This document shows, piece after piece, positions 59,451-61,129 of a DNA stretch of 64,000 nt; position 1 is the stretch's first letter, and each line of letters begins with the position of its first letter. The stretch is from Leucoraja ocellata (taxonomy: Eukaryota), in the NCBI GenBank assembly GCA_036785375.1, contig JAWMAR010000013.1, forward strand, positions 9,362,001 to 9,426,000, given 5' to 3'. A program made the translations under genes and the position numbers. A model generated the notes under the pieces. That model was not told the origin of the DNA. It saw only the letters and a program-made list of their open reading frames with translations, and made no database searches.

Positions 59451-60959
59451 TTTTATGTGAGCCAAGCACTGATTTTTGTCTCAATTATAAATTGATACTT
59501 TTTATCAATATAACCAAATGACTATGTCCTTGGAATTGAGACATCCGCAATTACAAACTCATAATGGAAAATTCAACCAAGTGATGGAGAAAATAAGAAA
59601 GCCTGCCTATATACTGCTCACAGCCTTGAGGGATCACAACATTTGATCCCAGCAAGTCTGATGGCATTTGTGGAGAAGATCTATAATTTGTAGTGTATCC
59701 AGTCTCTTGATTAAAAGAGAATGTGTATAGACAAATAACAGTGAAAGAAAAACCAGGCATTAGGCTGTGAATAGAGACAACAATACATTAGCATTGCAGT
59801 GCAAGTATATGTTATTATTTGTGTATATAACATATAAAGGCACATTATTGTACATGAATAAGATAGTCTGAGGAAAGCTTTCCTATTGTAAGAAGGGGAA
59901 AAAAATCAATGCAGCAATCTTTCTCATTCCCCTCATCCAATCCGTAATTGAAATGGAAAATCAAATGAACGCAGAGCAGATAATTGTTTTATCAATATTC
60001 CCGGCCTGCCCTACAAGGGTCAGTGCAGAATGATCATGAGCTGGGGATATGACAAGGACAAAATGTGAAATTGAACAGCATGGAGGCAATAAATCAGGCT
60101 TGACAAGAAATAGTGACCAGCATGTAGCTACACTATGTAGGTGCCAGGCCAAAGTTTGTCCTCATCTGGCTGCACCAAGTCAAGCTTAAACGTTGACATT
60201 TATTGGCTTGAAAACATTTTATCTATGCTTTATGAATTTTTTCATTGATACCTTGCAATAGGTTTATTAAACAGTACATTGGAAAACTGAAATGTTTAGA
60301 TGTAAGTTTTATGTATGCTGTCCTATGCAAGCCCTATTTTCTCCTTTTGCCTTTTTCACCGGTGAAAACCATCCCTAACAAAAATGCTTTGGTCATCAAG
60401 TAAAACTACAGTATATATTTCAAATACTGCGGACAGCCCGGGTATTTAGAGCCGTATCTGTTTTCATCGAACACTTGCATTTAGTCAGAATACCCTTGAG
60501 GAAGGTTCAATAATAAGTGAAGATTCTTTTATTTTTTTGCCCCTCATCTGGTATCAGTGCAGTTTCTGGTAATGGTCTTAAAATGATGTGCCTGACCTGC
60601 TAAGAAGCAAGATATTGTTGCTTTCTACTCCTAATGATGAGGCAGCCAAAATGAATTTTTATTTTATTTTAATATATTTCCATGTCTCATGATGCAAATA
60701 TTCAATATCTAGTTGGTGTTTGATCTTGTGATAGGGTATTTTTCTTGTTTTAATAGTATTGATTTTTCCTTTACTGTGCTCTGAGAGCCCGTTCTTTTTT
60801 AAAATAAAAGACAAAAGCAGTTAAAATGCTAGTCGTCAACTCAACTGTATGGAAAATATTGCGTATAAAACAGAATTTTAAGTGGATTAAATTTTAAAAG
60901 GAAAAATACAATTCAAAAGTGTTTGAAATGAATAACAGTGATGTTGCACTGGTTAAATG

Positions 60960-61108
60960 GGTACGGCAGCATCTATGGAGCGAAGGAAATAGGCAACGTT
61001 GCCTATTTCCTTCGCTCCATAGATGCTGCTGTACCCGCCGCGTTTCTCCAGCAATTTTGTCTACCTTCGATTTTCAAGCATCTGCTGTTCCTTCTTGAAC
61101 ATCTTGTA
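60960..61108 (+). mobile_element. PLE-derived element with a 5' fold-back palindrome and a 13-bp TSD
   Basis: CACTGGTTAAATG at 60947-60959 and 61109-61121; 78-bp palindrome at 60959-61036. Confidence 0.85.
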
Positions 61109-61129
61109 CACTGGTTAAATGATTGGTTT

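Follow-up and report, generated by a model that had tools for sequence, protein, structure and literature searches.

The palindrome centred on AAC|GTT at 60997/60998 of the window (the whole 64,000-nt stretch of Leucoraja ocellata DNA that was analysed) most likely records the integration of a Penelope-like element (PLE). The account we prefer, at a probability of roughly 60%, is that a single uncleaved RNA was reverse-transcribed from each of the two target ends and that the two cDNAs were joined by microhomology. A sequence-only reading of the same DNA had already taken the structure for an integration footprint, and the empty site and the target duplication described below agree with this.

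The two arms of the palindrome, 60959–60997 and 60998–61036, are reverse complements at 38 of 39 positions with a spacer of 0, just as the sequence-only reading had described them; the sole mismatch is a C/T change at a CpG. We numbered the element from window base 60998, the first base past the axis (+1), with −1 being the preceding base in an un-inverted copy. On this scale the insertion comprises a short, tailless inverted arm (60960–60997, minus strand, element positions +38 to +1) and a long arm on the plus strand, which is made up of a pseudo-LTR part (60998–61065, +1 to +68) and a PLE tail of 36 nt (61066–61101, +69 to +104) that is found on this arm only. The AACGTT joint (60995–61000), the self-complementary stem III motif of the minimal hammerhead, is common to both arms. 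Five extra plus-strand bases at 61102–61106 repeat 61093–61097 and are likely to reflect slippage at the priming end. The target-site duplications, both on the plus strand, lie at 60945–60959 and 61107–61121, and are identical over 13 bp (60947–60959 and from 61109), or 15 bp long with one mismatch. The 13-mer CACTGGTTAAATG occurs at only two sites in the window, 60947 and 61109. The duplication was probably 15 bp originally, with one change at 61108; organisms B, C and D have a G there.

The arms overlap over +1 to +38, so the inverted arm does duplicate downstream sequence, as had been claimed. Both arms carry T at +35, a variant present in 13 of about 380 arms counted, and thus derive from the same template variant. 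The outer end at +38 recurs, with a duplication, in the insertions L202, L229 and L283. The inverted arm takes the place of all element sequence 5′ of −3, and the minimal-hammerhead core and stem II are absent. The locus itself is ordinary, a dead stub.

In organisms A to D (four studies), contigs run from the left flank into the inverted arm, up to 60987, which rules out the palindrome as an assembly artefact. Contigs of B to D also run from the tail into the right flank, and the right contig of organism A begins at 61109. Organism E has a contig covering 60400–61008 that ends 11 bases beyond the axis and so falls below our bridging rule of 31 bases. None of the contigs listed spans the whole palindrome. 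In organisms F and G the site is empty: each has one contig in which 60946 is followed directly by 61109, so that 162 bases are missing, and 12 letters fit both sides of the join. The insertion is therefore present in five organisms and absent in two, organism E being ∼5% diverged in the flank and F and G lying at a similar distance. Together, the filled contigs of A to E and the 162-base skip in F and G make the locus a single 162-bp insertion with a true target duplication. The 13-bp duplication given as its boundary by the sequence-only reading is thus confirmed, and the empty site that it suggested looking for in relatives is found in F and G. An 87-bp stretch at 61414–61500 of the window is also missing in organism G.

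The element is an EN+ PLE. The long arm corresponds to the 3′ 104 nt of a very common repeat, whose exact 40-nt end piece occurs 11,042 times. Long family copies (L195 and L196) carry, upstream of the same pseudo-LTR, a broken ORF with a GIY-YIG domain (PF01541, E 6.3e-5), bearing out the earlier assignment to a PLE end; this ORF is absent from the locus, and two of four long-copy fragments had no match in a Pfam scan. Skates, rays and sharks supply the first relatives of the ORF; among those further away, several combine reverse transcriptase (RT, PF00078) and GIY-YIG (PF01541) in one protein. The one-sided tail of the inverted pseudo-LTR, at 36 nt, is within the 30–40 bp of EN+ PLEs, and the target duplication is likewise variable (13–15 bp here, 9–17 bp in 42 of 53 copies). 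The family probably belongs to the Neptune clade, judging from a C-x4-C-x2-C motif upstream of GIY-YIG in L195; a CX2-5CxxC linker between RT and endonuclease is given as a mark of that clade (PMC8557442). The skate and ray gene models P0001 and P0004 (nicotinamide riboside kinase 1 and divergent protein kinase domain 1C) contain the element ORF, a likely case of annotation spill-over or exonisation.

Upstream of +1, intact family copies have CTGAAGA, an extra A, a 12-nt stem II and GAAAC-GTT or GAAAC-GTC. The occurrence of CTGAAGA, 12-nt stem II variants and GAAAC-GTT/GTC in many copies indicates that the hammerhead core is present in the family, with self-cleavage predicted from these core motifs. 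By standard numbering, the cut would presumably fall after +3 (i.e. after 61000). The sequence-only reading was thus correct in recognizing AACGTT as the stem III palindrome, but not in placing the cut there, as it is predicted 3 nt downstream of the axis. The arrangement is that of the minimal hammerhead of PLEs (PMC4209133), in which the core consists of CUGAnGA and GAAA, stem II is preceded by one additional base and stem III is palindromic. The sibling copy at 6489–6582 (plus strand, −28 to about +68, tailless), which had served as the hammerhead reference, shows AACGTT in stem III as stated, but its core is damaged, reading CTAAAGA in place of CTGAAGA; an intact core lies at 44335–44396 on the minus strand. 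An Rfam scan of the window gave no hammerhead match, and the hammerhead structure was not recovered in minimum-energy folds of the monomers (z −0.6 and +0.6), which is unsurprising where stem III is lacking. Unlike a non-LTR retrozyme, which consists of tandem hammerhead units, the locus is a single head-to-head insertion without the core. MicroRNA precursors were considered and rejected, the Rfam scores for MIR1507 (40.9 against a gathering threshold of 73 bits) and mir-9201 (25 against 95.5) being generic hairpin matches.

Several other copies in the window deserve mention. The region 6432–6640 is a three-piece cluster composed of an inverted tail stub (+57 to +103, from a related subfamily), the tailless sibling at 6489 that it precedes, and an inverted copy of another subfamily (6583–6640); no duplication around this cluster was evident by eye. 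Older head-to-head pairs of the same family lie at 47323–47425, 46009–46188 and 35874–36036. Many copies have their 5′ ends between −24 and −30, where a pyrimidine tract runs into CATCAGT (family positions −60 to −24, e.g. in L196 and L195, upstream of the hammerhead). This pile-up near −28 may fit a transcription initiator, by its consensus, or a splice acceptor at the hammerhead. In Drosophila Penelope, an intron ends at helix I (PMC4209133).

If the axis marked the ribozyme site, as the sequence-only reading proposed, axes across the genome should reflect it. Anchoring each arm at +18 to +31, we found 11,204 head-to-head pairs in the whole genome. Using patterns of 26 specified letters each, which differ in CpG content, we counted 2398 exact joints at the stem II quasi-palindrome (14 paired bases), 235 at AACGTT (6 paired bases), 57 at the TA at +7/+8 (2 paired bases; a control three bases from the cut) and 28 at the GC of the predicted cut (2 paired bases), all of these counts being somewhat inflated, to an extent assumed equal for all patterns, by duplicate haplotypes and segments in the assembly (12 of 90 sampled copies). 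Joints therefore follow the length of microhomology and not the ribozyme cut, and AACGTT is a minority axis. The first 50 pairs listed comprised one with an AACGTT axis, about 17 at stem II (by eye) and two that were cut-to-cut, the rest being varied and often asymmetric. A similar picture was seen when tail-anchored copies were taken from one contig (the first 90, of which 78 were distinct), 31 being called inverted and 47 solo: none of the 31 had an AACGTT axis, and none of the 47 started at the cut (+4), with 14 starting at −24 to −30. Inspection by eye showed at least four further inverted copies that this stricter parser had overlooked (L067, L093, L117 and L122), none of which had an AACGTT axis. 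The top 30 similarity matches all had this axis, but these are ranked by likeness to the query and were excluded from the frequencies. A set of 50 AACGTT matches consisted of 18 simple two-arm insertions with a duplication, 10 without, 14 composites and 8 duplicates.

It is very improbable, given these counts, that the hammerhead sets the axis, either because the cDNA stops at the self-cleaved end or because an RNA dimer held by stem III is copied. In its favour, minimal hammerheads of the kind that has AACGTT as its stem III palindrome are proposed to act as dimers (PMC4209133), and the 235 AACGTT joints are about four to eight times those at the 2-nt sites. However, cleaved RNA begins at +4 and lacks AACGTT, so its cDNA would stop before this motif; cut-to-cut joints are outnumbered by those at the control site, and for every AACGTT joint there are about ten at stem II; no solo copy begins at +4; and hammerhead mutants were without effect on insertion in vitro (PMC11167929). 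The axis counts largely refute this explanation. The cDNA ending at the ribozyme site that was proposed earlier fails on the rarity of cut-to-cut joints and on the lack of any solo start at the cut among 47 copies, and a captured dimeric hammerhead intermediate is not needed to explain the structure. We infer that the hammerhead matters only through its palindromic stems, the cut playing no visible part.

The ends of the arms are more regular than the joints. Solo copies that happened to lie in the flanking sequences (n = 36) end at the same two places as the paired arms, at +62 to +76 in 20 cases and at +96 to +104 in 10, and RNA reads of other family copies break off at the same two places. 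Of the insertions flanked by a duplication, 34 of 42 with a stem II joint and 15 of 18 with an AACGTT joint have the outer end of the short arm between +64 and +70, and even short arms of 8–12 nt start at +68. Exactly one arm was tailed in 21 of 22 distinct pairs (p 5e-6 against 0.5) in a sample chosen regardless of the tail (25 loci given, two unmatched, one duplicate); among 60 stem II loci there was one two-tailed insertion. Minor alleles were common to both arms in 35 of 50 cases for the stem II set, where de-duplication had wrongly merged L233 and L234 with L213 (shuffled 8.6, maximum 19), and in 21 of 27 for the AACGTT set (shuffled 8.7, maximum 18). Shared alleles of this kind could also come from fold-back or gene conversion.

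The relative length of the arms varied in both directions. In terms of 5′ reach (n = 31), the tailless arm was longer in 11 copies, the tailed arm in 10, and 10 were symmetric. A tailless long arm combined with a tailed stub, with only about 10–29 bp in common, gave 104 matches, and the mirror form 60, of which 15 came from one tandem array. We inspected 30 of each form. For the first form these represented 29 distinct copies: the long arm was tailless in all 29, and a duplication was present in 24. In two of the 29, L283 and L266, the arms share no sequence, which is the classical twin-priming form.

These observations bear directly on fold-back, in which one strand would copy itself, being either the first cDNA or a self-primed antisense RNA (PMC3846280). 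An endonuclease would then resolve the hairpin so that the tail is kept on one side only (PMC8557442), and inversions between the arms at a later stage would scramble which of them is longer. This would account for the common alleles, the one-tail rule and the preference of joints for palindromic words, yet we consider it unlikely. Fold-back of the tailed strand cannot yield a longer tailless arm, and copies that pair a tailed stub with a long tailless arm are no rarer than their mirror form. In L283 and L266 there is no common sequence on which folding or flipping could act, the short arms of 8–12 nt still start at +68, and AAC|GTT leaves a hairpin loop no room. The fold-back of a cDNA on the palindrome, as suggested by the sequence-only reading, is thus disfavoured, since in many copies it is the tailless arm that extends further and in some the two arms have no sequence in common.

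The central base of stem II joints could be thought to separate fold-back from dual priming, as the tailed-arm base is in excess (667 C versus 489 G), in line with fold-back. We downgraded this count because L225 and L252 (G000:C8:1707858 and C8:2062667), which are 98% identical copies of the same insertion, differ at this very base. The difference was seen in one of four two-arm duplicate pairs and suggests that hairpin tips inverted after insertion, as fold-back with later inversions would allow. A post-insertion change of the centre confounds the 667:489 count and some of the asymmetric joints, and forms with little shared sequence were therefore counted instead. Arm mismatch was 2.4% for G-centre and 2.9% for C-centre copies (p 0.29); G-centre copies are thus not older, contrary to fold-back.

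A later deletion is another potential source of the AACGTT axis: a longer joint (e.g. at stem II) would have formed first, and a slip across the hairpin tip would then have left a single AACGTT. In a stem II-type joint, two AACGTT words form a direct repeat at a distance of 15 nt, as in every copy with both arms past −3, and the L225/L252 pair shows that centres are mutable. The arms of AACGTT-axis copies are also slightly more diverged (3.9%, n = 19, versus 3.1%, n = 44), but the difference is not significant (p 0.11), and organism E, at ∼5% divergence, is already AACGTT-centred while F and G are empty, leaving little time for such an event. We regard it as quite unlikely.

Amplification of a palindromic master element (MITE- or SINE-like) as a unit is highly improbable. 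A composite AACGTT unit does recur at L032, L036, L180, L182, L184 and L185, and there is a cluster on C23. Against a master element, simple AACGTT insertions occur in at least five subfamily haplotypes with both arms matching, the joints are highly varied, and duplications range from 9 to 17 bp, so that neither the ends, the centre nor the duplication length is fixed across copies. The dispersed composite palindromes (L032, L036, L037, L180, L182, L184, L185 and L191) have similar flanks, as if carried by another repeat. Two further arrangements were seen: at L222 and L023, short head-to-tail arrays (23-nt and 60-nt units) have grown from the inverted arm and are possibly seeds of satellites; and L289–L297 (G000:C8:11.29–11.70 Mb) together with C1077 contain one insertion 15 times at a spacing of about 40 kb, which marks a tandem segmental array.

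Staggered dual priming is favoured by the one-tail rule, the common alleles, the finding that either arm can be the longer one, and the existence of non-overlapping arms. The steps we infer from the fossil copies are as follows. The target would be cut with a stagger of 13–17 nt, and each nicked strand would prime reverse transcription, one from +104, where the tail ends, and the other from a start further upstream, which is +68 in most copies and +38 at this locus. The two cDNAs would run toward the 5′ end of the RNA near −28. Their complementary-facing ends would then pair at the best short self-complementary word, which at this locus would be AACGTT, followed by trimming and fill-in. A palindrome formed from overlapping arms means that the RNA must be copied twice, and the downstream cDNA would have to displace the upstream one; failed displacement would give tailed stubs, which are in excess among the copies. 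The imperfect symmetry of the two forms (104 versus 60) counts against the model. A symmetric joint, as at this locus, cannot by itself tell the models apart. The wider proposition, that PLEs integrate by ‘overlapping twin priming’, with an RT dimer copying one RNA twice from staggered starts, seems to us evenly balanced.

In L1 twin priming, reportedly described by Ostertag and Kazazian, both target ends prime on one RNA, leaving an inverted 5′ part and microhomology at the joint. The present family differs in having fixed sites for the second start and, in most copies, overlapping arms that give a palindrome. The sequence-only reading held that the structure is unlike twin priming. This is right for the locus, where the arms overlap and the inverted part is not upstream sequence; the family as a whole, however, grades into classical twin-priming products with an upstream inverted part and non-overlapping arms (L283 and L266).

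An inverted pseudo-LTR with a one-sided tail is a published PLE arrangement. Such pseudo-LTRs, the tail on one side and junction palindromes are described in PMC3846280 and PMC8557442, and the inverted arrangement is also noted in PMC8969392. Pen2a_Av of Adineta vaga (PMC3846280; overview in PMC8557442) and insertions of its type have head-to-head arms with a tail on one arm, a variable target duplication and a palindrome at the inverted joint, as seen here; the present locus differs in having no ORF and a length of 162 bp only, and its family of more than 11,000 pairs allows joints to be counted. Antisense self-priming (PMC3846280) and endonuclease resolution (PMC8557442) have been proposed as origins of the inverted form, and our joint and arm counts favour two primed cDNAs over either. 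The excerpts of PMC4209133 mention dual hammerheads on opposite strands, those of PMC2377424 give inverted repeats in Drosophila Penelope with no mechanism, and those of a retrozyme preprint do not treat inverted copies.

In vitro data are available for a protein from the green anole element Poseidon_Ac (PAc), which nicks and extends both strands, uses two internal start sites bounding the tail with AC-rich starts and is predicted to form a dimer; inactivating the hammerhead leaves insertion normal (PMC11167929). The two start sites bounding the tail and the AC-rich starts are shared with the present family, as would be the extension of both strands and the dispensable hammerhead, although PAc belongs to the Poseidon clade and our family looks Neptune-like. 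In the main text of PMC11167929, two-strand extension is not linked to inverted pseudo-LTRs, the word ‘inverted’ being used only for a blocking nucleotide, and later integration steps are left unvalidated. We found no proposal of dual priming for PLE inversions in the literature searched, which consisted mostly of papers outside subscription, and one may have been published.

The insertion lies in a PBX-family gene on the same (plus) strand, as had been reported; the gene is probably PBX3, judging from its N-terminus. A PBX-family exon at 11247–11320 (plus strand) opens the roughly 121-kb intron that holds the insertion, and the next exon is beyond the window. The long hairpin that the sequence-only reading expected in the host pre-mRNA is supported by the predicted fold of the plus-strand RNA, at −75.2 kcal/mol (z −17.8; none of 200 shuffles was as good), in which the arm mismatch becomes a G-U pair. 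In a poly(A) run of organism D, of which about 6% was read, there were no reads on the flanks of the insertion. As the genome has more than 11,000 similar pairs, we claim no function for this hairpin.

In practical terms, the locus can serve as a presence/absence marker (five filled, two empty). The wider value lies in the family-wide counts (the one-tail rule, the joint spectrum and the non-overlapping arms) and not in this copy. Thousands of near-perfect hairpins of 60–80 bp are predicted to place a double-stranded RNA load on the transcriptome. For the question of how inverted pseudo-LTRs with a tail on one side arise in PLEs, the family provides a large set of fossil cases, and its counts turn the question of PLE inversion into a direct test with an existing in vitro system. 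If overlapping twin priming is true, this one mechanism would explain why PLEs have inverted pseudo-LTRs, a tail on one side only and palindromes at their junctions, and its steps could be mapped from the more than 11,000 pairs that the genome contains.
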